Shown: positions 3,733 through 55,300 of the stretch, in pieces
Numbering within the stretch: position 1 is the stretch's first letter
How the letters are laid out: the number at the start of each line of letters is the position of its first letter
Assembly (NCBI RefSeq): GCF_050250995.1
Contig: NZ_JBFWNP010000030.1
Span: 367-64,366, forward strand
DNA length: 64,000 nt
Direction: 5' to 3'
Source: Ramlibacter sp.
GTDB lineage: Bacteria > Pseudomonadota > Gammaproteobacteria > Burkholderiales > Burkholderiaceae_C
Notes under the pieces: generated by a model
Seen by the model: the letters and a program-made list of their open reading frames with translations, nothing else
The model's database searches: none
Told to the model about the DNA's origin: nothing
Made by a program: the position numbers and the translations under genes

Positions 3733-4839
3733 ATGCGAATGCGGATGCGCGAGATGAAGCCCAGCACGTCCACCGGCGCCGCGATCCGCATTCGCAATCT
3801 GCGAAAGGCATTCGGGTCGGCGGTCGCGGTCGACGATGTGTCGCTCGACGTCGAGCCCGGTGAATTCCTCGCGCTGCTCGGACCGTCGGGTTCGGGCAAG
3901 TCGACGATCCTCATGAGCATCGCGGGCTTCGAGAGCCCCACCAGCGGACAGATCCTGATGGACGGCGTGGACTGCACCCACATCGCGCCCCACCGCAGGA
4001 ACGTGGGCATGGTCTTCCAGAACTACACGCTGTTCCCGCATCTGAGCGTGCTGGACAACGTGGCGTTCCCGCTGAAGATGCGCGGCCTCGCGAAAGCCGA
4101 GCGGCATGCGCAGGCGGAGCAGGCGCTCAAGAGCGTTCACCTCGGGGGCTACGGCGCGCGCATGCCGCACCAGCTGTCCGGGGGCCAGCAGCAGCGCGTC
4201 GCGCTGGCGCGGGCCATCGTCTACAAGCCGCGGCTGCTCCTGATGGACGAGCCGTTCTCCGCGCTCGACAAGAAGCTGCGCCAGGAGATGCGCCTGGAGA
4301 CCAAGCGGCTGCACGCGGAACTCGGCCTGAGCGTCGTCTTCGTCACGCACGACCAGGAGGAAGCGCTGACGATGTCCGACCGCGTGGCGGTGCTGAAGGA
4401 CGGACGCCTGCAGCAGATCGGCTCCGCGCACGACCTGTACGAGCGCCCCGTGAACCTGTTCGTCGCCGGCTTCATCGGCGACATGAATTTCATCCCCGCG
4501 ACGTTCACCGGCGAGTGCGTGCGGCTTCCCGGCGGCGAAGCGTGGAGCGTGCCGCCGGCAGCGGTCGTCGGCGAACTCTCCCCCGGCTCCGCCACCGTGG
4601 CGATCCGGCCGGAGCGGCTGTCGCTCGCGGCGAACCCCGGCGACCTCCGCCTGGCGGGCCGGGTGACGGACGTCATCTACTCCGGCGCGGACACCCTCGT
4701 CCTGGCGACGCTCGAGGACGGCACGCCCATCCAGGCGCGCACGAGCAGCCTCGACCGGCACCGGCATCGCGTCGGGGACGCCATCGCGCTGCATTGCCCG
4801 ACCGATGCGCCCCTCGTCTACGGGGCGGCCAGCGCATGA
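3733..4839 (+). CDS. ABC transporter ATP-binding protein (PotA/polyamine-opine type, TOBE domain)
   Basis: GPSGSGKS, LSGGQQQRV, LLLMDEP, VTHDQEEA; start ambiguous among ATGs at 3733/3739/3745/3754. Confidence 0.92.
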   Translation: MRMRMREMKPSTSTGAAIRIRNLRKAFGSAVAVDDVSLDVEPGEFLALLGPSGSGKSTILMSIAGFESPTSGQILMDGVDCTHIAPHRRNVGMVFQNYTLFPHLSVLDNVAFPLKMRGLAKAERHAQAEQALKSVHLGGYGARMPHQLSGGQQQRVALARAIVYKPRLLLMDEPFSALDKKLRQEMRLETKRLHAELGLSVVFVTHDQEEALTMSDRVAVLKDGRLQQIGSAHDLYERPVNLFVAGFIGDMNFIPATFTGECVRLPGGEAWSVPPAAVVGELSPGSATVAIRPERLSLAANPGDLRLAGRVTDVIYSGADTLVLATLEDGTPIQARTSSLDRHRHRVGDAIALHCPTDAPLVYGAASA

Positions 4840-5708
4840 ACGCCGTGTCGCGCATCTTCCAGCCCGATGGCCGCAACCTGTCGAGCGGCGGGTTCGCGCT
4901 GCTCGTCGCGCCCTTCTTCACGCTGATGCTGCTGGTCTTCCTGTATCCGATGCTGTCCCTGCTGTCCGCATCGGTCCTGGAGCCCGAGCCCACCGTGGCG
5001 CACTACGAGCGCGCGCTCACGGACCCCGTCTTCGTCGGCATCCTGCTGCGCACGCTGCAGATCGGCTTCACGGTGGCGGTCGCATCGCTCCTCATGGCCT
5101 ACCCCGTCGCGCTCCTCATGGCGCGTTCGAGCGGCCCGAAGTCGATCCTGATCACCGCGTGCATCGTGCTGCCGATGTGGTCCTCGGTCCTGGTGCGGAC
5201 CACGGCCTGGGCGGTGCTGCTGCAGCGCAACGGGCTGGTCAACGAAGCCCTGCAGTTCCTCCACCTCACCGACGGGCCGCTGAAGCTGCTCTACACGCGC
5301 ACGGCCGTCGTGCTGGCCATGACGCACGTGCTGCTTCCGCTCATGGTGCTGCCGATCTACGGGTCGCTCCGGTCCATTCCGGTCAACTACGACCGCGCCG
5401 CCGAGATCATGGGCGCGAGCCCCTTGCGACGCTTCCTCGAGGTCACCCTGCCGCTGTCGATGCCGGGCGTGCTGACCGGCTTCCTCATGGTCTTCCTGAT
5501 CTCGCTGGGCTACTTCATCACGCCCGCGCTGCTCGGCTCGCCGCAGGAAATGATGGTGTCCACCCTCATCTCGCAGCAGATCACCATGCTGCTCGACTGG
5601 CCCTTCGGCGCCGCGCTCGTGGGCGTCCTGACGCTCTTCGTCCTGTTCGTGGTCCTCGCGTTCGGAAAGTTCGCGCGATTCGACAAGCTGATGGGAGGCG
5701 CGGTGTGA
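4836..5708 (+). CDS. ABC permease (PotB-like)
   Basis: Hydrophobic helices, EAA-like loop NYDRAAEIMGASPLRRF; ATG overlaps the upstream stop. Confidence 0.9.
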   Translation: MNAVSRIFQPDGRNLSSGGFALLVAPFFTLMLLVFLYPMLSLLSASVLEPEPTVAHYERALTDPVFVGILLRTLQIGFTVAVASLLMAYPVALLMARSSGPKSILITACIVLPMWSSVLVRTTAWAVLLQRNGLVNEALQFLHLTDGPLKLLYTRTAVVLAMTHVLLPLMVLPIYGSLRSIPVNYDRAAEIMGASPLRRFLEVTLPLSMPGVLTGFLMVFLISLGYFITPALLGSPQEMMVSTLISQQITMLLDWPFGAALVGVLTLFVLFVVLAFGKFARFDKLMGGAV

Positions 5709-6508
5709 ACGTCCGATTGCTCGCGCTGAACATCTACGTCTGCGCCGTGCTCGCGTTCGTCCTCGTGCCGATCCTCGTGATCTTGCCGATGGCGTTCAGC
5801 AACACCTCCTACCTGACGTTTCCGCCGAAGGGCTTTTCTTTCCGCTGGTTCATCGAGTTCTTCAGCAACTCGCGCTGGATGGGCGCGGCCGCCTTCAGCC
5901 TCACCATCGCGTTCTGCGTCGCCCTCGTGACCTCGGTGGTCGGCACGATGACCAGCTATGCGATGGTCCGCGGCGGCGGCCGCCTCGCCACGGTCTTCCG
6001 CATCACCCTCATGCTGCCGGTGATCGTGCCGCACGTCGCGCTGGCGGTGGCGCTCTACCTCGTCTTCCAGAAGGTGGGGCTGATGGGCACGACGGCGGGC
6101 TACGTCCTGGCGCATTCGGTCATCGCCATGCCCTTCACCGTCTTCACGGTGAGCGCGGCGCTGTCGCGCATCGATCCCGCGCTCGAGTCCGCGGCCATGA
6201 GTTGCGGCGCAACCCGGTTCGACGCGTTTCGCCTGGTCACCCTGCCGAACATCCTTCCGAACGTGTTCTCGGGCGCGCTCTTCGCTTTCATCATCTCCTT
6301 CGACGAACCCGTCATCACCTACTTCCTGGCGGGCGCCCGCGACAAGACGCTGCCCCGGATGATGTTCGACGACATCCAGATGAACATCACGCCGATGCTC
6401 GCCGCCATCGCCGTGCTCCTGACCGGCCTGTCCATCGCCGTCCTGCTGTCCGCGGCGCTTCTTCAACGTCGCTCGCGGACGGGAAGCCCGAGCGAACCAT
6501 CCACTTAG
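5705..6508 (+). CDS. ABC permease (PotC-like)
   Basis: LTFPPKGFSFRWF, ESAAMSCGATRFDAF, ISFDE; GTG start overlapping the stop. Confidence 0.9.
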   Translation: MNVRLLALNIYVCAVLAFVLVPILVILPMAFSNTSYLTFPPKGFSFRWFIEFFSNSRWMGAAAFSLTIAFCVALVTSVVGTMTSYAMVRGGGRLATVFRITLMLPVIVPHVALAVALYLVFQKVGLMGTTAGYVLAHSVIAMPFTVFTVSAALSRIDPALESAAMSCGATRFDAFRLVTLPNILPNVFSGALFAFIISFDEPVITYFLAGARDKTLPRMMFDDIQMNITPMLAAIAVLLTGLSIAVLLSAALLQRRSRTGSPSEPST

Positions 6509-6528
6509 CCTTAGCCCTAGCCCTAGCC
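6505..6528 (+). repeat. Hexamer microsatellite (TTAGCC)2(CTAGCC)2
   Basis: Read directly; gives four in-frame TAG codons immediately before the GAGGAG Shine-Dalgarno of the next gene. Confidence 0.85.
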
Positions 6529-6543
6529 CGAGGAGTCTCCGAC

Positions 6544-8105: not shown

Positions 8106-9191
8106 ATGGAATATCGCAGACTCGGCGCTTCGGGATTGATGGTGCCGGCCCTCAGCTACGGCACGGGCACCTTCATTCCGCCCGGCACGCCGGGCCGCAC
8201 GGGGATCGAGCCCGATGCGGCCCGCCGGATCGTCGACGCGTGCATCGACACGGGCATCACCATGTTCGACACGGCGAGCACCTACGGAGGCGGCTATTCC
8301 GAGGAGGTGCTCGGCGCCGCGATCAAGGGTCGCCGGGACAAGGTGATCGTCTCGACCAAGGCGGGCCAGCCCGCGGGAGCCGGCCCGAACGAGCTGGGAC
8401 TGTCCCGCGCCAACCTCACCGCCGCTATCGAACGTTCGCTGCGCCGACTCGGCACCGACTACATCGACGTGTTCCAGTGCCATGTTCACGACCCGATGAC
8501 GCCCGTCGAGGAGACGCTCTCGACGCTCGACGGCTTCGTCCGCGCCGGCAAGATCCGCTACATCGGTGTGTCCAACTTCTCGGCCTGGTATCTGATGAAG
8601 GCGCTGGCGGCAGCCGAGAAGCACCACTTCACGCGCTACGTCGTCCAGCAGGTCTACTACTCGCTGATCGGCCGCGACTACGAACTCGAACTCATGCCGC
8701 TTGCCCGCGACCAGGGGCTGGGTGCCGCGGTATGGAGCCCGCTCGGCTGGGGCCGATTGACGGGCAAGGTCCGGCGCGGCGGCGTGATGCCTGAAGCGAC
8801 GAGCCGCCTGCACGCAACCTGGGATCTCGGCCCGCCCGTCGAGAACGAGGCCCTGTTCAGCGCGATCGACGTGCTGGAGCAGCTGGCGGAGGAGACGGGC
8901 AAGTCGATCTCGCAGATCGCCCTCAACTGGCTGCTGCAGCGACCCACCGTCTCCACCGTCATCGTCGGCGCGCGCAACGAAGCCCAGTTGCACGAGAACG
9001 CGGGCGCCGTCGGCTGGAACCTCACCGCGGAACAGGTGGCCCGGCTCGATGCCGCGAGCCCGGTGCGTCCGCTGTATCCGAACTGGTTCCACGAGGATTT
9101 CGAGTTCGACCGGGCGCGGGACCGATCGCAACCGGCGCCTCGCGACAGGCGACCGATTGCCGGAAGATCGCTTCCTGTAGAAAAGCCCTAG
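8106..9191 (+). CDS. Aldo/keto reductase
   Basis: MEYRRLGASGL, FDTASTY, VSTK, SLRRLGTDYID, GKIRYIGVSN. Confidence 0.92.
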   Translation: MEYRRLGASGLMVPALSYGTGTFIPPGTPGRTGIEPDAARRIVDACIDTGITMFDTASTYGGGYSEEVLGAAIKGRRDKVIVSTKAGQPAGAGPNELGLSRANLTAAIERSLRRLGTDYIDVFQCHVHDPMTPVEETLSTLDGFVRAGKIRYIGVSNFSAWYLMKALAAAEKHHFTRYVVQQVYYSLIGRDYELELMPLARDQGLGAAVWSPLGWGRLTGKVRRGGVMPEATSRLHATWDLGPPVENEALFSAIDVLEQLAEETGKSISQIALNWLLQRPTVSTVIVGARNEAQLHENAGAVGWNLTAEQVARLDAASPVRPLYPNWFHEDFEFDRARDRSQPAPRDRRPIAGRSLPVEKP

Positions 9192-9463
9192 TTCGCGGAG
9201 AGCCGTTCGGCGATCACCTGCTTCACGATCGTATCGATCAAGGTAGCAGCCATGCCCTCGTCGAGGCCGGCCCGAACGCATTGTTCGACGAAACTCTTTT
9301 TCTGATCCTGGACGCGGGTCGGGTCGTAAGGGGCCTGGCCATTTTTCTTCTTGATCGCGCCGATCTCGCGCGAGCGTTCGAAGCGCCGACTCAGCAGGGC
9401 GACCAGTTGCTCGTCGAGGCTGTCGATCTCGGCCATCAGGGACGGCATGTCTTGCGCGTGCAT
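9188..9463 (-). CDS. Stand-alone chorismate mutase type II (AroQ-like)
   Basis: EIDSLDEQLVALLSRRFERSREIGAIKK...YDPTR. Confidence 0.8.
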   Translation of the reverse strand: MHAQDMPSLMAEIDSLDEQLVALLSRRFERSREIGAIKKKNGQAPYDPTRVQDQKKSFVEQCVRAGLDEGMAATLIDTIVKQVIAERLSAN

Positions 9464-10589: not shown

Positions 10590-10871
10590 ATGAAGAATGC
10601 CACGATCCCTTCCGTCCGCGTGGAGCCGGAATTTCGTGCCGAAGTGGAAGCCGTGCTTGGCGAGGGCGAGACATTGTCGCAGTTCGTGGAAGCATCGGTT
10701 CGTGCGGGCGTGGAGCGGCGTCGCATCCACTCGGAATTCGTCGCACGTGGCCTTCGTTCCCGCGACGCCGCTCGCAGAAGCGGTGACTACGTGGACGCCG
10801 AAGTCGTGCTCGCCGACTTGCAACGCAAGCTTGTCGCAGCTCGAAGGCGGCCAGCCCAAAAGCGCAATTGA
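10590..10871 (+). CDS. YlcI/YnfO-family antitoxin, copy 2
   Basis: Same length (93 aa) as copy 1, mostly synonymous differences. Confidence 0.8.
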   Translation: MKNATIPSVRVEPEFRAEVEAVLGEGETLSQFVEASVRAGVERRRIHSEFVARGLRSRDAARRSGDYVDAEVVLADLQRKLVAARRRPAQKRN

Positions 10872-11188
10872 CGTTCCGGGTCCGCCTTACTCGAGATGCG
10901 GCGCAGGATCTCGAGCGCCTGTTCGATTTCATCATCGAGCGAGAGATGGCGCGCGATGGCGGCGGCGACCTGGAGCTTGCTCAGCGGGCGCTCGATGCAG
11001 TCCGCGCAGGCATCGCGACATTGCAGACTTCGCCATTCACTTGCCGAAAGGCAGGCGGGAATGCATTTCTTCGTGAGCTGATCATCTCATTCGGTCGCTC
11101 TGGCTATGTCGCGCTATTCGAAATCGAGGATGCCGAGAACGTCTCGGTCGTCGCTGTTCGGCACCAGTTGGAGGACGACTACCACTAA
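10868..11188 (+). CDS. RelE/ParE-family toxin, copy 2
   Basis: Near-identical protein to 1762-2082. Confidence 0.85.
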   Translation: MTFRVRLTRDAAQDLERLFDFIIEREMARDGGGDLELAQRALDAVRAGIATLQTSPFTCRKAGGNAFLRELIISFGRSGYVALFEIEDAENVSVVAVRHQLEDDYH

Positions 11189-11332: not shown

Positions 11333-12040
11333 ATGCTGAAGATCATTCACCTCGACACCGACCTCGTCGCCATCGACAAGCCCGCGGGCCTGCTCGTACA
11401 TCCGAGCCGGCTCGACGCGCACGAGCGGGAAACGGCGCTCGCGACGCTGGAACGCCAGCTGGGCGAAAAGCTCTTTCCCGTACACCGCCTGGACAAGGCC
11501 ACGAGCGGCGTGCTTCTTTTCGCGCGCTCGGGCGAGGCAGCGCGCCACTTCGCCGCGGGCCTCGAAGCCACGGAGAAGCGCTACCTCGCGCTCGTGCGCG
11601 GCTGGCCGCCGGAGGCGGGCGCCGTCGAACACCCGCTCGCGCGGGACCCCGAGAAACCTTCGGCCGGCCAGCCTCAGCGCGAGGCGCTGACCCGCTACCA
11701 CCGCCTCGCAACGCACGAGTGGCCGTTCCGCGTGGACGAGCGCCATGCGACGACGCGCACCGCCCTGGTGGAAGCACGACCCATCACCGGCCGCCGGCAC
11801 CAGCTGCGGCGACACTTCAAGCACATCGCACACCCGATCGTCGGCGATTCGACGCATGGCAAGGGTCCGCTCAACCGCGCGGCCGCGGCTCACTTCGGCG
11901 TGCAGCGGCTGTGGCTGCACGCGCTGTCGCTGCGCCTGCCTGGCGGGTTGAGCATCCGGGCGGCGCCGGATGAGGCGTGGGGGCGGTTTCTGGCTGATGG
12001 CGATCCAGCGGTCGCGGCATCACCTGATCCGCAATATTGA
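11333..12040 (+). CDS. truC: RluA/TruC-family pseudouridine synthase (TruC-like)
   Basis: AIDKPAGLLVH, VHRLDKATSG, KRYLALVRG, TGRRHQLRRH, HPIVGD; no S4 domain. Confidence 0.7.
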   Translation: MLKIIHLDTDLVAIDKPAGLLVHPSRLDAHERETALATLERQLGEKLFPVHRLDKATSGVLLFARSGEAARHFAAGLEATEKRYLALVRGWPPEAGAVEHPLARDPEKPSAGQPQREALTRYHRLATHEWPFRVDERHATTRTALVEARPITGRRHQLRRHFKHIAHPIVGDSTHGKGPLNRAAAAHFGVQRLWLHALSLRLPGGLSIRAAPDEAWGRFLADGDPAVAASPDPQY

Positions 12041-12059
12041 GCCGCCCGCCGCCATGGGC

Positions 12060-12280
12060 CTCCCTCACGGCCCTGCAGCCGATGGACAGGTCTGGAAAGT
12101 AGGCCGGGACGAAGCTTGGCACGGACCTCGTCGAAAGAGCCTTGCACGGGCGGGTCGCCAATATCACCCACTTCGAAGACTGCACCGGAGATCGCTTGGC
12201 TACGCGCACAGGCGAGCAGCTCCTGGTCCGCGTCGATGCCGACGACCAGCGCCCCGCGCGTGACCAGATCGCGGGACTGC
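12060..12280 (-). pseudogene. Class I SAM-dependent methyltransferase fragment
   Basis: Minus strand reads RDLVTRGALVVGIDADQELLACAR...FEVGDI, then after a frameshift SFVPAYFPDL; no motif I or start recognised. Confidence 0.5.
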
Positions 12281-12413
12281 AGGCGTCAACACTCAGATGC
12301 TCTAACATGCGCGCGAGAAGGCTGCAAAAAATTGAAACCGTTGCGGAACACGCGATGCTCACAAGCGCCCGCGATTGCGCCGCCTTGCGTGAGCAGTACG
12401 TTCACCCCGCCGC

Positions 12414-13877
12414 ATGCACTTCCTGCTTGACACCAATGTCCTGATTCCGCTGGAGGATTCAGCCATTCCGCTGAGGGACAGTCTAGCCAACTTCGTTAGG
12501 TTGGCCACAGCGAACAAGCACGTGCTGGTATATCACCCGGCTTCGATCGAGGATATTGAGGAAGACAAGAACGACGCCCGCCGCGCACAGACGCTGCAGC
12601 GGCTTCGCCAGTACACGAAGCTGGAACACCGGCCGCCTTGTCCATGGAACACGCCGGATACAAAGCGCAATGATGCCGCTGACAATGAAATCCTCTACGC
12701 GCTTTCACTGCACGCAGCATCCGCGCTCGTCACGGAGGACCGGCAGATCCACGACAAGGCGAAGGCCAGAGGGCTTCTCGACCGCGTCTTTACGATCCAG
12801 ACGGCCGAAGACCTGCTGCTGCGCCTGCACGAGACGGTCGGCGTCAGACTGCCGAACATCGAGGAGGTCCCGCTCTACCAGCTGACGCCCCTGCTGGCGT
12901 CCAAGTTCTTCGACAGTCTGCGCGATAGCTACGACTTCGACCGGTGGTTTCGGCGAAAGTCTGAAGAGGGGTGTCGCGCATGGGTACATTGGGAGGCGCA
13001 GGACAGGCTTGGAGGCATCTGCATCTTTCAGCGTCAGGACAATGAGCGCATCGCGGACGGCGTCACGCTTGAGGGAGCGGCCCTCAAGCTCTCGACCTTC
13101 AAGGTGGACCCGGCCTGCCAAGGCCGCAAGGTCGGTGAACTCTTCCTGAAAGCCGCGTTTCAGTTCGCGAGCGTGAATCGCCTCCAGGACATCTTTGTCC
13201 ACGGCGACGAGGAACGTCACTACTTTCTATTTGAGATGCTCGCCGACTTCGGTTTTAAGCAGGTCGGCCACCATCCCGCATGCGGACGCCGCGACGTCGT
13301 CTACCTGAAGCATCACCCGGTTGACGCCCCTACGGCCTCGGTTCCGCCCTTCGAATACCTCCGCTCGTACTTCCCCCACTTCCGCCACGATCCGTCCGTT
13401 TCGGCATATGTTGTACCAATCCGGCCTGAATACCACGACATTCTGTTCCCGGATTTCGAAGGCGCATCGACCCAACAGCGGCACCTGTTCCAGCGCGACA
13501 ACTATGCGGGTAACGCCATCAAAATGGCCTACTTGTGCAAAGCACAGTTAAAGGCAATGAACCCCGGCGACGTCTTGCTCTTCTATCGTTCAGTGGACGA
13601 GCATGCCTTGACCAGCATCGGAGTCGTCGAGACCTACGAGACGCTGGCCGATGCCGAGGCGATCGTCGCTCGCGTAAAGCGGCGTACGGTGTATTCCCTC
13701 CCGGAGATACAGAAGATGGCAAGCAAGCCTACAAGGGTGATCCTGTTCCGGTTCGTGCGACATCTGACTCAGGCGTTGCCTCTCCAGGAATTACTGGCAC
13801 GCCGAATCCTTGGCGGGCATCCGCAGAGCATCACAAAGATTTCCCATGACAAGTTCGAAGACATCCTTTACCTTTGA
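12414..13877 (+). CDS. PIN + GNAT + PUA-like (EVE/ASCH) multidomain protein
   Basis: N-term PIN FLLDTNVL...D.EIL...LVTED; GNAT LKLSTFKV...QGRKVGELFLK, FGF; C-term PGDVLLFYRS...SIGVVE...PQSI. Confidence 0.8.
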   Translation: MHFLLDTNVLIPLEDSAIPLRDSLANFVRLATANKHVLVYHPASIEDIEEDKNDARRAQTLQRLRQYTKLEHRPPCPWNTPDTKRNDAADNEILYALSLHAASALVTEDRQIHDKAKARGLLDRVFTIQTAEDLLLRLHETVGVRLPNIEEVPLYQLTPLLASKFFDSLRDSYDFDRWFRRKSEEGCRAWVHWEAQDRLGGICIFQRQDNERIADGVTLEGAALKLSTFKVDPACQGRKVGELFLKAAFQFASVNRLQDIFVHGDEERHYFLFEMLADFGFKQVGHHPACGRRDVVYLKHHPVDAPTASVPPFEYLRSYFPHFRHDPSVSAYVVPIRPEYHDILFPDFEGASTQQRHLFQRDNYAGNAIKMAYLCKAQLKAMNPGDVLLFYRSVDEHALTSIGVVETYETLADAEAIVARVKRRTVYSLPEIQKMASKPTRVILFRFVRHLTQALPLQELLARRILGGHPQSITKISHDKFEDILYL

Positions 13878-13890
13878 GGGAGATGTCGCG

Positions 13891-14304
13891 TTGATCTCGG
13901 TTCATCCCGTCCACGTCGAGAAAATTATGTCCGGCGAAAAGAACGTGGAATTCAGACGGGTCTGGCCCACTCGAGCAATTAAGACGCTCGTCGTCTATTC
14001 CACGCATCCCGAGCAACGGCTTGCCGCAATCGTGCAGGTCGCCAACGTTGTACGTGGTTCGAAGACGGCGCTATGGCAGGTGGCCTTGGCCGAGGGCGGA
14101 GGCATCACGCGGCAAGCGCTCTCCGACTATCTGGAAGGGAAGGAGTTTGGCGTCGCTATCCGCCTGGGCGAGCGAGTGAATCTGGGCTCGGGCGTGCTCC
14201 CGAGAGAAATTTTTGGCGCGTCCTTTCGGCCCCCACAGTCGTTCCGCTATCTGTCGGATACCGAAAAGGCGAAAGTGCGTGCCGTTGTGGAGGCCGTTCG
14301 GTGA
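13891..14304 (+). CDS. ASCH-domain protein
   Basis: ISVHPVHVEKIMSGEKNVEFRR, VVYST, RPPQSFRYL; GAGGGAG SD before TTG. Confidence 0.85.
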   Translation: MISVHPVHVEKIMSGEKNVEFRRVWPTRAIKTLVVYSTHPEQRLAAIVQVANVVRGSKTALWQVALAEGGGITRQALSDYLEGKEFGVAIRLGERVNLGSGVLPREIFGASFRPPQSFRYLSDTEKAKVRAVVEAVR

Positions 14305-14482
14305 CTGTCCTCTTTGTCTTTGGGGTGCATGGGCGGGGAAAGCTCCCGCTGTGCTCAGGTCGCGCAGCTTGATGGCTGTCTGCATGTGACGGCCAGCGAG
14401 ATCATTCGCCGTGCGCGCGCACAAGTGATTGCCTCGACAGGAAAGTTTGTGGCCGATGTGGATGGCAACCAGAAACTGCTTA
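14301..14482 (+). pseudogene. P-loop NMP-kinase-like/AAA_17 protein, frameshifted and truncated
   Basis: GTG overlaps the ASCH stop. VLFVFGVHG in one frame continues as SSRCAQ...HVTASEIIR...KFVADVDGNQKLL in the next; restoring bases in the G and A runs gives GVHGAGKSS. Similarity ends near 14480. Confidence 0.65.
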
Positions 14483-14506
14483 AGGTTCTCTATCTCGGCA
14501 TCCTGA

Positions 14507-14622
14507 GACGCTTCTTCTCAATGCGTCGGATCGAGAACGATTGCGATCCCAGATCAGGCGTTCCTGCGTTCTGGGTCATACTCTGCCTCAGTGCAGAGCG
14601 ACTCGACGCTCTGCACTGAGGC
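14507..14622 (+). ncRNA. Candidate structured ncRNA upstream of the RT
   Basis: Perfect 16-bp hairpin 14585-14600/14607-14622 plus shorter stems 14507-11/14523-27, 14528-33/14544-49 and 14545-53/14570-77 (enclosing 14555-58/14563-66). Confidence 0.45.
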
Positions 14623-14665
14623 TCGGGCCTCGGCCTAAGAAGAATTGGAGCTGCACCGCATTGGT

Positions 14666-16345
14666 ATGGACCGACTCGAAAGACTCCTGAACCTGGGCTA
14701 CCTGCCGTCCCAGTTGCCGCCGGCATTCAAGTCAATCGACTTAGCGTCCCACCATGCCGGCCTGTACGCCATATGGTCCGCTATGCCTTCCAAGGCTGGT
14801 GTTCCGACATCGCCAAGGGCGAAGTCGGAATTATTCAGTGTCGCGCGGGCAGGACATCAGCGTCGAGCAACGAGCTTGCCAAACCCTATCGCTCAGACTT
14901 TTTTGAGCAAGGCAGTCGTCGACAACTGGGCCAGCATCGTCGTGCATTTCCGCCGCTCGCAGATGAGCGCGAGCCACCCCCGCTTTCGGCGCGACTCCAA
15001 TCGCGCTGCAAGCTTGCCGTCCATGCAAGGTCTGTACGAGCGACGATTGTTGCAAGGCGCTGGTTACCGGTACGTCCTCCGGACCGATATCTCACGATTC
15101 TTTCCGACTATCTACACGCACTCCATTCCGTGGGCCCTGCACGGAAAGTCGGCAGCCAAGAAGACTACGAAAGTCACGCCAAAGTTTTTTGGCAACCTGT
15201 TGGACTTGGCAATTCGCCAAGGCCAGGATGGACAGACACTCGGGCTTCCGATCGGCCCGGATACGTCGCACATCATTGCCGAGTGCATCGCGACGTCGAT
15301 CGACGTCGACCTACGGCGCAGACTGAAAACCAAACTCGCCGGCTTTCGCTACGTCGATGACTACTACCTTTTTTTCGAGACGCACGACGATGCAGAAAGG
15401 GCGCTCGCCTACTTGGTACGGAGTCTTCGCGACTTCGAACTTCAAATAAATTTCGAGAAAACTCGGATATGCCGCGTCGACGAACTGGAAGACGACTCGT
15501 GGACACTCGCCCTTCGCAGCATATCGATTGCTGCCAATGGTCAGCGACAGCGCTCCGACATCAATCACTATTTCGAGCTGGCGCGCGATCTCGCTAAGCG
15601 TCATGCAACCGACGGCGTCATGGTTTATGCCCTGCGCCGCGTCGGCTCGGTGATCTTGCGTCTACAGAACTGGGACGCATTTGAGGCACAACTTTGCTTG
15701 GTCGCAGCTGCACATCCCGTAACGCTTCAGTCGATTGCAAGGCTTCTTTCCACGTATTCAAAGTTGGGTTTCCCAATTGGAAAGCTACGCTTGACGCGAC
15801 TTTTGAACTCGATTATCGCGGAGCACGCGCCACTCGAGCACCACAGCGAGGTCGCATGGTGCCTGTGGATCTGCAAAGAGCTTGGCTTGGCAATGTCGGC
15901 CGCAAATGTCGACTCGGTGGCAGCGATGGATTCGTCAATCTGCGCGCTGATTTTGCTGGACCTCCATTCAACCGGGTGTCTACCCAAGACGCCCTCCCCC
16001 TCTCGCTGGAAGGCGTTCGAGACAACGAGCGCACTGTGGGAGGAGCAGTGGATGCTCAGCTATGAAGCTGCTGTTCGGGGATGGGGAGGCATGTCGGACG
16101 TCCACGTGAGGGCAGATCCGCATTTCGAGGAGTTGCGCACGCGCCAGGTTCGCTTCTACGACACGGGCGCATCTATGGCTCCGATCATTACCCCGAAGCC
16201 AGATGCGCTAAAGCGCTACAACTTCGACACCATCGCTCAGTTGCTGGAACTTGACGATCTACACGACGTCTTTGAATACGAGGATGAAGAGGACTCATAC
16301 GGGAACCCGATCGAGTCCGATGACGAAGACGAACACGATTTCTGA
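14666..16345 (+). CDS. UG/Abi-type (defence-associated) reverse transcriptase with C-terminal helical domain
   Basis: DISRFFPTIYTHSIPWALHG, GLPIGPDTS, RYVDDY, INFEKT; about 250 aa helical C-terminal region (HHSEVAWCLW, WMLSYE). Start may be TTG 14645. Confidence 0.88.
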   Translation: MDRLERLLNLGYLPSQLPPAFKSIDLASHHAGLYAIWSAMPSKAGVPTSPRAKSELFSVARAGHQRRATSLPNPIAQTFLSKAVVDNWASIVVHFRRSQMSASHPRFRRDSNRAASLPSMQGLYERRLLQGAGYRYVLRTDISRFFPTIYTHSIPWALHGKSAAKKTTKVTPKFFGNLLDLAIRQGQDGQTLGLPIGPDTSHIIAECIATSIDVDLRRRLKTKLAGFRYVDDYYLFFETHDDAERALAYLVRSLRDFELQINFEKTRICRVDELEDDSWTLALRSISIAANGQRQRSDINHYFELARDLAKRHATDGVMVYALRRVGSVILRLQNWDAFEAQLCLVAAAHPVTLQSIARLLSTYSKLGFPIGKLRLTRLLNSIIAEHAPLEHHSEVAWCLWICKELGLAMSAANVDSVAAMDSSICALILLDLHSTGCLPKTPSPSRWKAFETTSALWEEQWMLSYEAAVRGWGGMSDVHVRADPHFEELRTRQVRFYDTGASMAPIITPKPDALKRYNFDTIAQLLELDDLHDVFEYEDEEDSYGNPIESDDEDEHDF

Positions 16346-16346
16346 C

Positions 16347-16447
16347 CCTTTCAACTTGCCTAGGAGTGAAAGGCAGCTAAGGTAGCATGGTGTTATGCAT
16401 AGGCTGGCGAGAGGCTGCGACCTGACCTTAGGCAGACCTAGAGGTCA
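16347..16447. other. Hairpin-rich non-coding segment downstream of the RT
   Basis: CCTTTCA/TGAAAGG stem 16347-16373; TGACCT-TAGG-caga-CCTA-g-AGGTCA 16423-16447; no U-tail. Confidence 0.45.
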
Positions 16448-16630
16448 TCCTCGTGGTACTTCCGTCCCCAGTCTGAACCGCTCATCCACCGACAACTGAT
16501 CTTGCCTGAACCAACGCTGTAGCAGCGTGACGCCAGCTCTCGGCCCGCAAGCGGCCATACGCAACGCGCCCACGCCCACAGCAGGCCTGCGCCCCCGCAA
16601 TAGCCCACCCCGCCAGCGACAATCCCCACC

Positions 16631-17503
16631 ATGTCCTCCGGCATGCTCCAAGCAGCCCTCGCGTACGCGATGTGGGGCCTCTTCCCGCTCTACTTCCATC
16701 TCGTGTCGGCCGCCGGCCCGCTGGAGATCGTGCTTCATCGCGCCTTGTGGTCGCTGGTCTTCGTGCTGGCGGTGCTCGCGGTGCTGCGTCGATGGACGTG
16801 GCTGCGGGACGTCGTGCGCCACCCCCGGACGCTCGCGACCTTTGCCACCAGCGCACTGCTGCTGTCGACCAACTGGCTGGTGTACGTCTGGGCGGTGAAC
16901 AACGAGCGTGTGGTCGAGGCGAGCCTGGGCTACTTCATCACGCCGCTGATCAACGTGCTGCTCGGCTATTTCGTGCTGAAGGAGCGGCCGCGTCGGGGGC
17001 AGTGGTACGCGCTCGCGATCGCAGCGGCCGGCGTCCTGTGGCTGACCCACGTTGCCGGCTCGCTGCCATGGGTGGGGCTGATCCTCGCGGGGACGTTCGG
17101 CATCTACGGGCTGATACGCAAGACCGCTCCCCTGGGCGCGCTCGAGGGTCTGGCGCTCGAGACCTTGCTTCTCGCTCCGCTGGCGGCCGGCTTGCTCGCC
17201 TGGCGGACCGCGCACGCTGGCAGTGTCGTGTGGGGCGATCCGGCGCTGCTCGGGCTGCTGGCCCTGGCAGGACCGCTGACCGCGCTGCCGCTGCTGCTGT
17301 TTGCGGCCGGGGCGCGCCGCATCCCGATGGCCACCCTCGGCCTGCTGCAATACATCGGCCCGACGATCCAGTTCGCGCTCGGGGTGTGGCTGTTCCACGA
17401 ACCGTTCGCCGGTGCGCGTCTGGCCGGCTTTGTTCTCATCTGGCTGGCGCTGGTGATCTACACCGCGGAAGGCTGGGTGTCGCTGCGACGTCGGGATTCC
17501 TGA
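16631..17503 (+). CDS. rarD: EamA-family transporter RarD
   Basis: AYAMWGLFPLYF, ASLGYFITPL, LGLLQYIGPT. Confidence 0.92.
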   Translation: MSSGMLQAALAYAMWGLFPLYFHLVSAAGPLEIVLHRALWSLVFVLAVLAVLRRWTWLRDVVRHPRTLATFATSALLLSTNWLVYVWAVNNERVVEASLGYFITPLINVLLGYFVLKERPRRGQWYALAIAAAGVLWLTHVAGSLPWVGLILAGTFGIYGLIRKTAPLGALEGLALETLLLAPLAAGLLAWRTAHAGSVVWGDPALLGLLALAGPLTALPLLLFAAGARRIPMATLGLLQYIGPTIQFALGVWLFHEPFAGARLAGFVLIWLALVIYTAEGWVSLRRRDS

Positions 17504-49329: not shown

Positions 49330-52300
49330 TTACGCGCCTGCACGACCTCCTGGCGGACGCTTCGCCGGTTGACCATCGAGCGCACGTGCCAACAGGGCCT
49401 GATCCGACCGGCCCGGCGTTTGTTCCCGCGCCGTGCGAATCTGGTCGGCGAACTTCGCCGCCGCACGCTTCGCGGGCTTCTCTTCCTTCCTGGCGTCTTC
49501 GTTTTCGCCATCCTTGGCTTCCGCGGTTTCGCTCGTGTCGACGAACGCCGCATCGGCCTGTCCGGGGTCGGCGGGCGCGGTCGACCGCTGATCGGCCGAT
49601 TCGCCGGGCACCGACGGCACGAGCGAGGCATTCCCGCCCGCGCCGACTTGGATGTTGACCTGTGTCGACGCCTCCAGTCCGTTATTGTCGCGCGCAACCA
49701 CGCGGATTTGCAACAAATCGTTAAAGCCGAGCGGGGGCTGGCCGGTGATTTGTCCCGTTGCCGCGTCAAATCTCACCCAGTTCGGCAGCGGTTGCCCGTT
49801 GGCGAGGCCGGCTTCGAGCTGGACCGTGGCCGTCGCACTGGTGTGCGCGAACGCGGACGGCGGGATGGTGATCGAGAAGCCGCCGGAGGTCACCGTGGGC
49901 TGCGTCGTGATCGGCTCGAACCGGACCAGCGTGTCGTTGCCCTGCGGGCTGCGCGCGAGGCCCAGTTGCTCCGGCGTGACGCGCGCGACGTTGAAGGTCG
50001 GCGCGGTCGCGGTCACCGTCGAGAACAGCGGCGTCGACAGGTTGCCCGAGCGCGTCGCATCGCTGACGATCGCGAAGTTCGTGCGCACCTGCCGGCCGGC
50101 GTCGTCGCTTGCGACGATCTGCAGCTGCAGCGTCGGCATCGGGCCGGTCTCGGGCCGGCCGTTGATGAGGCCGGACGTGCTGTCGAACACGAGCCAGGGC
50201 GGCAGCGGTGAGCCGTCGGCCTGCCGCGCCTCGAGCGTCACGATGCCGGTGCCGCCGGCCGCGAAGGCGTCGGACGGAATTGCGAAACTGACCCCGTTGG
50301 AGCTGGCGCGCAGGTCCGGAATGCCGTTGAGCACGGTGACCGCGGTGGGCGGCGGTGCGCCGGTGCTCGTGCCGGCGGTCGTGGGCGTCGCGGCCTGGAA
50401 GCCGGTGCGAACGGGCTCGACGACGCGCGAAGCCGCTGCCGGCGTGCCGACTGGCTGGATCGTCACGATGCCCGTGGACACGTCGGCCGCGGGTGCATTC
50501 GCGCCGGTCGCGGCGCCGGGCGCGGCGACGATCGTGCGCGCCACGTTCGGCAATGTGCCGCTGCCGCCGGTGAGCGTGCTCGGACCCGTCAGCGTCGACG
50601 TGTTGAGCGTCGGCGATGCGGGCGCCGGCGCCTCGGCGGACGCGGAGGTCGGCGTCGGCTGCAGGATCTGCTCGATCGTCACGGGCGCCGGGATGGGCGC
50701 GGCCACCGGAGCCGTCGGCACGACCACCGGCGCAGGCGCCGGCACCGTGACCGGCGCGGGCGGCGGCGGGACCGGAACCGGAACTGGCGCGGGCGGCGGT
50801 GGCGCAGGCGGCTCGGGCACCGGCGCGGGCGGCGGCGGGACGGGCACGGGAGCCGGCGGCGGCGGGGCCGGCGGTTCGGGTGCTGGTGCCGGCGGGGCCG
50901 GAGGCTCTGGCGCCGGGGCAGGCGGCGGCGGGGCAGGCGGCTGCGGTGCCGGCGGCGGCGGAGCGGGCGGTTGCGGCGCGGGAGGCACGACCGCACCGCC
51001 GCCGCCGCCGTTGTCGACCGGAGGCGGAGCCGGCGGCGGGGGCGCGGGCGGGGGCGGCTCGACCGGCGGCGGGGCCGGCGGTTCCGGCGCGGGCGCCGGC
51101 GGCGGAGGCGGCGGCTCGGGCGCCGGCGGCGGCGCCGCGGTGTCGTTCACGTCGAGGACGCGCATGCGCACGGCCACCGCCTGCGACCAGTTGCCCGCGG
51201 CGTCGCGTGCCTGCACCATCTCCGTCATCTCGTTGGGCGCCGTCTCGAAGTCGTTGACGGCCGCGCTCGCTGCGCCGGCGGCCGTCATGCGGATCTGGCC
51301 GCCGCTCGAGATCATGAAGTTGCCGTCGGCGCTCATGTTGCCGCCCGAGTCGGCGAAGCGGAACGCCATGACGGCGCCGCCGTCGGTCGCCGTGACCCAG
51401 CCGAGCGCGTCGCCCGCGGCGCTGTTTTCCGAATAGCTGATCACCTGGCCCGAGGCGATGACGGGCGCCTCGTCGTCGACGTCGCGCACGCGCAGCGTGA
51501 ACGTTTCCGCGGGGGACCACTGGCCTTTGGTGTCCTGCGCCTGCACCGAGTACATGAACACGTTGGGCGTCGCCTCGAAGTCGTTCGCCGCCGATGCGGC
51601 GCCGGCCGCCGTCAGCACGACACGGCCGTCGTTGCCGATCGTGAAGAAGCCGTCGGCGCTGGTCGTCGTGCCGGTCGCGGTGAAGCGGAAGGCCGCGACG
51701 CCCACGTCGTCGTTGGCCGTCACGTCGCCCACCGTGTCGCCCGCTACGCTGTTCTCGTTGTATTCGAACAGCTGGCCGGCCGCGACGACGGGCGGCGTGT
51801 CCGGCGCCGGGGCCGGCGGGGGCGGGGCCGGCGGGGGCGGGGGCGGCGGCTCCGGCGCGGGCGGCGGCGGCGGGGGTGGCGCGGGCGGCGCGCCATTGGT
51901 GACCGTGGCGTCGGTGAACGTCACCGCCGTGTTCCCGGCCAGGTCCACGAGAGCGCTCGAACCCGGTGCGTAGCCGACGGTGATGGTGTCGCCGCCCGAG
52001 ACGGCGGAAGCGAGCGTGAGGGTGACGGTCTTGGCCGCGGCGTCCACGCTGACCGAGTCCACGCCTCGTGCGGCCCCACCGACCTTGACCGTGTAGTCGC
52101 CGGCCGCCGGCGTCGTGCCCGCGAGCCCGCCCGCCTCCGTGTACGTGAGGACGAGCGTCGTGCCCGTGGCGTGCGCCGCGCTCAGCACCGGCGCCGACGT
52201 GTCGACGACGATGGCGAGTGCCGGCGAGACCCCCGATGCATTGCCGGCCGCGTCGGTGACGGTGGCCGTCATGCTGCGCGTGCCGGCGGTGAGCGTGGGC

Positions 52301-55300
52301 GTGATCTCCACGAAGCCGCCGGTGATGTCGGTCGCGGAGAGCGTCGCGCTCGCCACTTCGATGCCATCGGCGAAGAGCCGCACGACGTCGCCCGCGACCG
52401 GCGCCGCCGCGCCGCTGCCCGCGAGCGTGACGCGAACCGTCGGCGTGGTGTCGGCCGTGATGTTGTCGCTGTCGCTCGCGCCGCTGTCGCTCGCCGCGAC
52501 GAGGTCGAGCGTCGGCGCGGCCGGCGCGGTGACGTCGGACGAGCCGTTGCTCACCGCGCGATCGACGAGCGCGGCGGCGACGTTGCCGGCAACGTCGGCC
52601 AGCGGGTTCGCGCCGGGCGTGTAGCTCACCTTCACGGACTCGCCGCTGTCGACGGCGGAGGCGAGCGTGAGGGTCACGGTGCCGGCGACGGCGTCGACGT
52701 TCACCGCGGTGACGGCGCGTGCCGAGCCGGCGACGTCGACCACGAAGTCGCCGGTTGCCGGATTCGCCGCGGCCAGTCCGCTGCCGCTGTCGGCGTACGT
52801 GAGCACGATGCTGCTGCCATTGGCCGTCGCGCTGGCGAGCGTCGGCGCGCCCGTGTCGATCGTGATGGCCGTCGGATGGCTCGCGGCGACCGAGATGTTG
52901 CCTGCCGCATCGGACTGGCGAACCTGCACGGCGCCGGCCGCGTACTGCCCGGAAGCCAGCGTGAAGGCCGAGCCGGAACCCGTCGTCCACGTCGCGCCGC
53001 TGTCGACGCTGTACTGCCAGGTCGCGCCGGTCTCGAGACCGCCGACCTGCATGAGGCCGTTGCTCGTGGTGCCGTCGCTTGCGCTCGTGCCCGTGTCCGC
53101 GGACATGGCAAGCGTCGGCGCCGTGGGCGGCGTGGTGTCGGGCGCGGCGGCGGTGTCGACCGTGACCGTGCGCGTCGCCGCGGCGCTGGGGTTGCCGGCG
53201 GCATCCGTCGCGACCACGCTGACCGTGTAGGTGCCGTCGGCCGGAATCTGCGCGCTCGCGAACGCACGGCTCCAGTTGCCCGAACCGTCCGCGGTCGTCG
53301 TGAGCGTCGTCGAGCCGAACGTGACGGAGACCGTCGCGTTGGCTTCGGCCGTGCCGATGACCGTCACGCCCGCGGCCTTCTCGGTCGCATCGATCACATC
53401 GTTGGCGGCGACGCTGCCGAGCGTCGGCACGCCCGGGGCGGCGGTGTCGATGGTGATCGTCCGCGTGCCGGCCGCGCTCACGTTGCCGTCCGTGTCGGTA
53501 GCGACGGCGCTGATCGTCTCCGTGCCCTGCCCCATCGCCGTGAGGTCCGCGGCCACGAGCGTGTAGCTCCACTGGCCGCTGCCGTCGGCGGTGACGGTGC
53601 GCGTGTTGCCGCTGCCCAGCGTGAGCGCGACGCTCGCGTTGGAGCCGGCCGTGCCGGTGATCGTCGAGCCGGCCTCCGCCGCATTGACGACGTCGTTGCC
53701 AGCCACGATGTCGATCGACGGCGCGCCCGGCGCGCCGGTGGCGACGGTGATGGCGCGGGTGCCGGCGCTGCTCACGTTGCCCGCGGCATCCGTCGCGGTC
53801 ACGCTGACCGTGTAGCTGCCGTCGGCGGGAATCTGCGCCGAGGTGAACGTGCGGCTCCAGTTGCCCGAGCCGTCCGCGGTCGTCGTGAGGGTCGTGCCGC
53901 CGAACGTGACGGAGATCGACGCGTTGGCTTCCGCCGTGCCGCCGATCTCGATGCCCGCGGCCTTCTCGCTCGCACTCACGCGGTCGTCGCCGGCGACCGC
54001 CGTCACGACCGGCGCCGAGGGCAGGCCCGTATCGACCACGACGCTGCGCGTGACGGTGGCGCCGACGTTGCCGGACGTGTCGGTGGCGGTCACGCTGACC
54101 GTGTGCGTTCCGTCCGCGGGAATCTGCGCCGAAGTGAACGCCTGGCTCCACTGGCCGGACGCATCCGCCGTGGTGGTGAGCGTCGTCGAGCCGAAAGCGA
54201 TCGACACGGACGCATTCGCTTCCGTCGTGCCGGAGATCGTCACGCCCGCGGTCTTCTCGCTGGCGGCGATGCGGTCGTCACCGGCCACGACGGCGATGGT
54301 CGAAGTGCCGGGCACATCGGTGTCGATGGTGATGGTCCGCGTGGTCGCCGGGCTCACGTTTCCGGTCGCATCCGCCGCGGTGACGCTGATCGTCTCCGTG
54401 CCCTGGCCCATGGCCATGATGTCGGCCGCGACCAGGGTGTAGGTCCAGTTGCCGCTGCCGTCGGCGGTGACCGTGCGCACATTGCCCGCGCCGAGGGTCA
54501 GGCTGACCGTCGCGCCCGCTTCGGCCGTGCCCGCGATGGCGCTGCCGGCCTCGGACGCATCGATCGCATCGTCGCCCGCGATCGTTGCGATGGTCGGCGC
54601 GGCGGGTGCGGTCAGATCGACCGTCACGGAAGTCGCGGCACTCACGCCGCCGACGTTATTCGCGGCGTCCACGACGCGGCTCGTGACGCCGAACGTCCCC
54701 GCGCCCTGCGCGGCGATGGTCGCCTGCGACACGATGACGGTCGCGCTGCTGCCGGCGATGTCGCCGGAGGTGAGCGTGTAATCGACGACCTGCGCACCCC
54801 AGTTGATTCGCAGCGTGTCGCCCGCGACCGCGTTCGTGCCGCCGAGGTTCACGACCACCGGCGTTCCATTGGCCGCTTCGGCCGCGCTGATGCCGCCGCC
54901 CGCGTTCTCCGAAACGGTCGGCGCGCCGGCGGGCGCCACCGGTCCTGCCAGCACCACGCTGACGGACGTGGCGGCGCTCGCCGCGCTCGCGTTGCCCACC
55001 GAGTCGACGAGCTGCGTGGTCACGTTGAAAGTGCCCGTGCCCTGCGCCGTGATCGTCGCCTCCGGCACGGTGACGGTCGCGCTGTTGCCGGTGACGTCGC
55101 CGCTCGTGAGCGTGTAGTTGAAGGTCTGCGAACCCCAGTTGATGCGCAGCGTCTCGCCCGCGACCGCGCCGGTGCCGGTGAGGTCCACCACGACCGGCGT
55201 GCCGTCGGCCGCCTCGGTCGCGTTGATGCCGCCGCCGCCGTTCTCGGCGATGGCCGGGGCCGTGCCGGGCGCCGACGGCGCGGTCGTGTCGACGGTGACG

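Follow-up and report, generated by a model that had tools for sequence, protein, structure and literature searches.

A putative single-gene DRT6 (UG12) reverse transcriptase system in Ramlibacter sp.

Does a seemingly solitary reverse transcriptase (RT) gene of a Ramlibacter strain belong to a known type of defense RT, and does it stand by itself or form a system with the genes and the leader sequence next to it? The question is raised by a stretch of 64,000 nucleotides (nt) of Ramlibacter sp., hereafter called the window (contig NZ_JBFWNP010000030.1 of the RefSeq assembly GCF_050250995.1, positions 367 to 64,366 of the forward strand), for which a preliminary description made from the letters alone had proposed a stand-alone, defense-type RT of unclear subfamily. 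Based on an open reading frame (ORF) scan, the PADLOC Drt6 profile and the Protein Data Bank (PDB) entry 9wy8, we assign this gene (positions 14666-16345 of the window, forward strand, 559 amino acids (aa) plus stop codon) to DRT6, the type named by Mestre et al. 2022 for the group UG12 (PMC9226505). We put the probability that it is a class 1 UG/Abi RT of the DRT6 (UG12) type, acting as a single-gene abortive-infection system, at roughly 0.88.

The gene product and its assignment to DRT6

The gene lies in a single uninterrupted ORF that runs on the forward strand from position 14645 (TTG) or 14666 (ATG) to 16345. Initiation at the in-frame TTG would yield a protein of 566 aa, for which the homologs give no support; the ATG at 14666 is favored as the likely start codon because the N-terminal residues MDR are invariant among the RT homologs (alignment of 27 sequences) and the close homologs with called genes encode proteins of 557-559 aa. 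The catalytic core, as delimited by motif coordinates and family conservation, extends from the motif A aspartate D141 (nt 15086-15088) to the YVDD box (15086-15361, forward strand). The three motifs that the preliminary description had reported as intact were all located in the uninterrupted 559-aa frame, namely YTHSIPW (aa 150-156, nt 15113-15133), GLPIGPDTS (aa 193-201, nt 15242-15268) and YVDD with its aspartates D231/D232 (aa 229-232, nt 15350-15361). The residues D141, Y150, T151, H152, G197, P198, D199, D231 and D232 are conserved in at least 95% of 202 non-redundant family members, as are R67, which aligns with R75 of DRT4, and R113. The RT of the window keeps every residue conserved at this level across the family, with neither a frameshift nor a premature stop codon.

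RVT_1 (aa 95-270) is the sole Pfam domain, in line with the earlier statement that a maturase tail, Cas1 and an effector domain are lacking, and neither the NAxxH nor the VTG signature of retrons, likewise said to be absent, was found in the protein. The long helical C-terminus that had been noticed corresponds to an all-helical (alphaRep/HEAT-like) domain at aa 292-492 (15539-16141, forward strand), predicted to be almost wholly helical in the AlphaFold2 (AF2) model with a high predicted local distance difference test score (pLDDT). When compared with Foldseek, this domain of the model superposes on the structures of DRT6, DRT4, AbiK and Abi-P2, and a helical C-terminal (alphaRep) domain is a hallmark of class 1 UG/Abi RTs (PMC9226505).

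Chain A of PDB entry 9wy8 aligns collinearly with residues 1-558 of the RT (E 3.7e-134, 451 bits), with 41.6% identity over 548 aligned positions. The same entry, "Cryo-EM structure of the hexameric DRT6", ranks first in the Foldseek search made with the AF2 model (template modeling (TM) scores 0.79/0.89, 42% identity), above DRT4/UG15 (TM about 0.68), AbiK, Abi-P2 and AbiA. The YVDD aspartates of 9wy8, numbered D621/D622 in the MBP fusion, are equivalent to D223/D224 of the RT itself; these match exactly the catalytic mutant of DRT6 in PMC12783706. Among the PADLOC profiles, those matched over their full length gave E-values of 1e-175 to 1e-180; the Drt6 profile PDLC03748 scored 583 bits over profile positions 1-497 of 511, and the AbiK/AbiP2 models about 123-140 bits.

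The preliminary description had placed the RT in class 1 of the UG/Abi RTs (AbiK/AbiP2/DRT4-like), an affiliation that PADLOC, the PDB search and Foldseek all bear out, and had left the UG number open, with profile-based placement named as the way to find it. That number is UG12, i.e., DRT type 6, by the same three lines of evidence, and the pattern of full-length profile matches is the UG12/Drt6 one, the same as that of the validated DRT6 discussed below. It had also foreseen that a clean match to a characterized DRT type would lower the novelty of the gene, and 9wy8 is such a match: DRT6/UG12 is an already characterized type with a solved structure, of which the window gene is one further member. 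The family is large, with at least 1022 clusters at 90% identity (E ≤ 1e-10, word-indexed search) and, in an exhaustive search at E ≤ 1e-30, 1046 clusters at 50% identity, a figure that counts in related RT groups too.

When compared with systems that have been studied in the laboratory, the window RT is closest to the DRT6 of Sphingopyxis sp. (PHR10625.1; 9wy8), with which it shares the RT motifs, the helical C-terminal domain, a full-length collinear alignment, the single-gene architecture, the PADLOC profile pattern and an acidic tail that is unresolved or disordered. The two proteins differ in the tip of this tail (...GDIFE in Sphingopyxis versus ...EHDF in the window) and belong to different sub-lineages, that of the window RT including Hydrogenophaga, Acidovorax and Thiocapsa. 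DRT4 (UG15) of E. coli (9vdo, 9vdv, 9l9s, 21ou) has the class 1 UG/Abi fold, is a hexamer and is encoded by a single gene, and its restraint by ExoI and its triggering by ORF55 of phage T5 have both also been shown for DRT6, but it is only about 21-23% identical to the window RT. AbiK, Abi-P2 and AbiA also combine a class 1 UG/Abi RT with a helical C-terminal domain and are oligomeric, protein-primed, template-independent polymerases; they are more distant (15-19% identity, TM 0.35-0.63). AbiK primes from its N-terminal Tyr44, and the structure 7z0z is that of the Y44F variant.

Genomic context of the gene

To judge the gene by its neighbors, we compared 80 loci encoding relatives of the RT (31-73% RT identity), with up to 8 kb per side as the contig allowed. 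All-against-all clustering of the ORFs within 4 kb of the RT returned no neighbor that recurred in more than three of these loci. RT relatives at 82-88% identity also adjoin unrelated genes: an M48 peptidase together with an Mrr-like nuclease, a LysR regulator and, in one lineage, an AAA_23/SMC-like gene of 1305 aa. At the DNA level, homology to the relatives is confined to the ORF, and the nearest relative (locus L084) alone also shares the 118 nt upstream of it (14548-14665). Because the DNA homology stays within the ORF, the mobile unit is essentially the RT gene alone. Of the "single-gene (or gene plus RNA)" system first put forward, the single-gene part is thus upheld by the lack of a partner recurring in more than 3 of the 80 loci; the gene-plus-RNA part is not, as a scan of the whole window found no Rfam RNA family and the leader is common to the nearest relative only.

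The AAA_23/SMC-like gene encodes, in loci L086-L089 (positions 23/44-3961), a 1305-1312-aa AAA_23/SMC_N-like ATPase on the same strand, 39 nt upstream of an RT that is 82-83% identical to that of the window. Neither the window nor any of the 80 compared loci has it, and since L086-L089 are 95-100% identical to one another and count as one lineage, we regard it as a lineage-specific neighbor; these loci could represent a lineage-specific two-gene arrangement. The nearest relative carries, immediately 3' of its DRT6 gene, a second, different RT gene (564 aa, RVT_1) and a gene of 245 aa (positions 4129-6538 of that locus), and upstream of its DRT6 gene, judged by eye, the C-terminus of a Tn3-type transposase. 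This contig looks like an RT-rich mobile defense patch.

The gap of 361 nt that precedes the RT gene in the window is made up of about 180 nt of pseudogene, the 66 nt that follow it and the 118-nt leader (14548-14665, forward strand, delimited by the extent of DNA homology), which is probably the promoter and 5' untranslated region (UTR) of this RT copy. Within the leader, 44 nt upstream of the RT start, lies a 16-bp perfect inverted repeat around a 6-nt loop (GCCTCAGTGCAGAGCG / CGCTCTGCACTGAGGC; 14585-14622, forward strand), whose RNA hairpin is strongly stable (z -4.6). The hairpin is partly conserved in the nearest relative alone, and because its conservation does not reach beyond that locus, neither hairpin nor leader is counted into the RT system. 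The hairpin could be a stabilizer of the 5' UTR or an operator.

The pseudogene belongs to a second module. Directly upstream of the RT, PADLOC and Pfam identify a candidate defense system, PDC-M11 (genes A and B, 12414-14304, forward strand). Gene A (12414-13877, forward strand) encodes a 487-aa protein with PIN, GNAT and EVE domains (PDC-M11A, 440 bits), and gene B (13846-14304, forward strand), which overlaps it by 32 nt, encodes an ASCH protein of 152 aa counted from the ATG at 13846 (PDC-M11B, 130 bits). Homologs of PDC-M11A or B were found within 8 kb of the RT in none of the 80 related loci. They occur in Hydrogenophaga crocea (L090), where the A protein falls into the same 90%-identity cluster and the B gene is 82% identical, and where the pair is followed by a gene for a 177-aa P-loop (AAA_17/18) kinase-like protein with overlapping stop and start codons (8888-9421 of that locus). 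PADLOC does not list this kinase-like gene under PDC-M11. A remnant of it, outside the RT system, is present in the window at 14301-14481 (forward strand) and covers codons 1 to about 61 of 177, as seen by tblastn and DNA homology. Codons 1-27 are read in frame 3 from 14301 and codons 13-61 in frame 1 up to 14481, the latter with 76% identity (tblastn), and the frameshift sits inside the Walker A motif. PDC-M11 may in fact be a three-gene system, and it may be disabled in the window.

The homology between the window (12411-14480) and the H. crocea locus, 85% at the DNA level, stops at 14480. The DNA that goes with the RT can be recognized from 14548 onward and starts at 14482 at the earliest. 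With the junction thus placed between 14481 and 14548, PDC-M11 and the RT are best described as two separate modules. Together they form an islet (12.4-16.3 kb) with a GC content of 0.57-0.59 versus 0.68 for the window, the RT gene itself having 0.57, which is flanked by a pseudouridine synthase gene and an EamA-family transporter gene. Flanking repeats, a tRNA gene or an integrase gene that might mark the ends of an island were sought at the islet and none was found, and a tRNA scan of the window returned none. The RT locus is a clean example of modularity, with an ORF-only cassette beside a cut-down PDC-M11 operon.

Two further features were observed elsewhere in the window. A gene for a ParE-family toxin (10868-11188, forward strand, Pfam E 1e-10) lies about 1.2 kb from the defense islet, and a small ORF ending at 10871 that overlaps its start is a likely antitoxin gene. 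At the other end of the window, on the reverse strand, a giant ORF of at least 4887 aa (49330-63993), with a GC content of 0.71-0.78 and a strongly negative AT skew, probably encodes a huge repetitive surface or secreted protein.

Alternative explanations

The most obvious competitor is that the RT is a DRT4 (UG15) rather than a DRT6 protein, since its top PADLOC model, PDLC02179 (597 bits, full length), is labeled "Drt4" and since the DRT4 structures are the second-best fold match (TM 0.68). Yet the validated DRT6 of a Sphingopyxis metagenome-assembled genome (locus L020) itself scores best on PDLC02179 and ranks the models in the same order as the window RT does (PDLC02179 > PDLC03748 > PDLC02177 >> PDLC03752), so that the "Drt4" label of PDLC02179 is a naming quirk. 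PDLC03752, which carries the label "Drt4" within the series of UG-named models and is presumably the one for UG15, gives the RT 249 bits only, the NCBIfam Drt4 equivalog gives 223.4 bits against a cutoff of 450, and the DRT4/UG15 chains of the PDB reach 103 bits at most, over RT residues 60-287, against 451 bits for DRT6, with a structure-based identity of about 21-22%. The name "antiviral reverse transcriptase Drt4" is given by NCBI to the true UG15 relatives and withheld from those of the window RT, which are called just "RNA-directed DNA polymerase". Finally, the "MNYE" motif around the priming tyrosine of DRT4, found in 103 of 117 UG15 proteins, is missing from the window RT, and we consider a DRT4 identity highly improbable. 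PDLC02179 and PDLC02177, both labeled "Drt4", score highest on the validated DRT6 and on other UG12 members, and with these labels automated calls may list DRT6 genes as DRT4.

Three other explanations leave the type of RT aside and concern what it works with, or whether it works at all. The RT might act as a third partner of the PIN-GNAT-EVE and ASCH genes of PDC-M11 in one multi-gene system, all three genes being on the forward strand in one low-GC islet; but the absence of PDC-M11 genes from all 80 RT loci, the kinase-like gene that follows the pair in H. crocea, where no RT is found in 7 kb per side, and the module junction at which this third gene is cut off in the window make such a partnership scarcely credible. 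Just as improbable is an RNA-dependent RT of the retron, DRT2/DRT9 or group II intron kind that copies a neighboring non-coding RNA, for instance one transcribed from the leader. The strong hairpin (16-bp stem, z -4.6) so close to the start codon would fit such a role, but it was found with its leader in the nearest relative only, the other homologs sharing the ORF alone and one lineage having just 39 nt upstream; Rfam has no family in the window, the published DRT6 synthesis is template-independent, and in addition to the missing retron signatures, the RT matches retron, group II and DRT9 references only weakly (the retron St85 model gives 35.6 bits where its cutoff is 235, and the group II intron RT/maturase model TIGR04416 gives 45 bits where it is 300). 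The gene could also be an intact but silent passenger, left unexpressed by the recombination that cut the upstream operon. The junction with a truncated gene just upstream speaks for this, as do the public runs, which are of DNA type only, and the scan of positions 12000-16800, which detected neither a sigma-70 consensus promoter nor a terminator at the RT, although a consensus of the E. coli type is a poor test in a high-GC organism. Against it stand the undamaged ORF with all its highly conserved residues and the 118-nt leader, which traveled with the gene as in the nearest relative, and we regard a silent gene as unlikely.

Several points weigh against our assignment of the RT as an active DRT6 system. 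The AF2 model is that of a monomer, and its pLDDT falls below 50 over aa 144-199, a region that includes motifs of the fingers and palm. With only 41.6% identity to the sole characterized DRT6, the range of phages, the trigger and the product could all differ, and according to reviews, what DRT6 makes and how it works is less well established than for DRT4. Three public runs are listed, all of them DNA-type runs from landfill metagenomes, two of which contain the sequence, and there are no RNA runs among them. Finally, a search of the RT family alignments for a conserved counterpart of the priming Tyr125 of DRT4 found none: in the PDB alignment this residue pairs with L117 of the window RT. 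The nearby Y124 was considered as the counterpart and rejected, since, although invariant in the 27 aligned sequences, it gives way to F, S, N or H in close relatives, and it is not conserved across the 202 non-redundant family members. The priming residue of this RT would then not be a DRT4-type tyrosine and could lie elsewhere, e.g., at Y545, a conserved tyrosine of the tail.

Mode of action and the acidic C-terminal tail

What the RT would do in the cell can be sketched from its relatives. UG12/DRT6 guards E. coli from phages T5 and ZL-19, and a mutation of the RT active site abolishes this defense (PMC9226505). The Sphingopyxis DRT6 is oligomeric, and its DNA synthesis is template-free, with a product that is covalently bound to the protein. 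Its mode of defense is abortive infection, and it is toxic together with the T5 DNA-binding protein ORF55 as well as in a delta-sbcB strain (PMC12783706). For DRT4, random single-stranded DNA (ssDNA) is degraded by ExoI until ORF55 shields its 3' end (PMC12783706).

By analogy with these systems, we infer the same cycle of synthesis, trimming and abortive infection for the window RT under the DRT6 assignment. The protein would form a hexamer, as judged from 9wy8, and would continuously make untemplated ssDNA that is primed from one of its own side chains and stays covalently attached, as published for DRT6 and DRT4. In the uninfected cell, a host 3'-5' exonuclease (ExoI/SbcB in E. coli) would trim this ssDNA. 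Upon infection, a phage DNA-binding protein, such as ORF55 of T5 in the model system, would protect the 3' end, and the protected ssDNA would accumulate and lead to growth arrest or death ahead of phage release.

The last part of the protein has a composition of its own. Based on composition, pLDDT and family statistics, we delimit an acidic C-terminal tail at aa 520-559 (16223-16342, forward strand), whose 40 residues comprise 18 Asp/Glu and not a single Lys or Arg and end in ...ESDDEDEHDF. Its last 20 residues (aa 540-559) have a pLDDT of about 30 and are predicted to be disordered, and 9wy8 models just 495 residues of the DRT6 chain. We examined the tail in a clade of 49 sequences, non-redundant at 70% identity, that includes the window RT and the validated DRT6. 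The net charge of the last 30 residues is -8 or lower in 43 of the 49 members; Phe is the last residue in 25, a P[FYWL] ending is present in 14, and an acidic-Tyr motif (Y545 in the window RT) in 35. The endings seen among the RT relatives include IDDIPF, EDDIPF, DDIPL, DDIPY, DDLPF and DEIPF, and also ...DDF. Of 492 control ORFs from the same loci, 4 have a tail as acidic as this and 17 a terminal Phe, and not one has both an acidic tail and an aromatic last residue.

An acidic, Phe-ended tail as a feature unique to DRT6 had to be partly rejected. Phe endings are frequent in the DRT4 family (50 of 117), in many cases preceded by acidic residues or Pro (...DDDLIPF, ...EKLPF, ...PEPDF), though the DRT4 tails are far less acidic, a net charge of -8 or lower being reached by 9 of 117 versus 43 of 49 in the DRT6 clade. 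A C-terminal aromatic tip is thus common to DRT4 and DRT6 despite an identity of only about 22% between the two families.

A disordered acidic tail with an aromatic end is also found in the bacterial single-stranded DNA-binding protein (SSB), whose C-terminal tip reads ...DDDIPF. The likeness is limited to the tail, as the RT is without an OB fold and the tip of the window RT, EHDF, is without the canonical Pro. A preprint on DRT10 cites the SSB tip as a handle for ExoI/SbcB and other partners, and finds a tip of the SSB type on the SSB-like phage trigger. The DRT papers that we searched do not mention any tail on these RTs, be it called acidic or C-terminal; the structure paper on DRT6 (BBRC 2025, 10.1016/j.bbrc.2025.152955) lies outside that search. 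From the composition of these sequences we tentatively put forward, as a possible though doubtful interpretation, that the conserved, disordered tail at the C-terminus of DRT6 enzymes functionally mimics the C-terminal tip of SSB. Such a tail may tether host enzymes of the SSB interactome, for instance the 3'-5' exonuclease that would restrain the ssDNA of the RT, or may instead compete with SSB-like phage triggers or act as a mimic of ssDNA.

If this were true, the tail would be a switch between tolerance and abortive infection. It could then explain how control by a host exonuclease and triggering by SSB-like phage proteins both act on the RTs of the DRT6 and DRT4 families.

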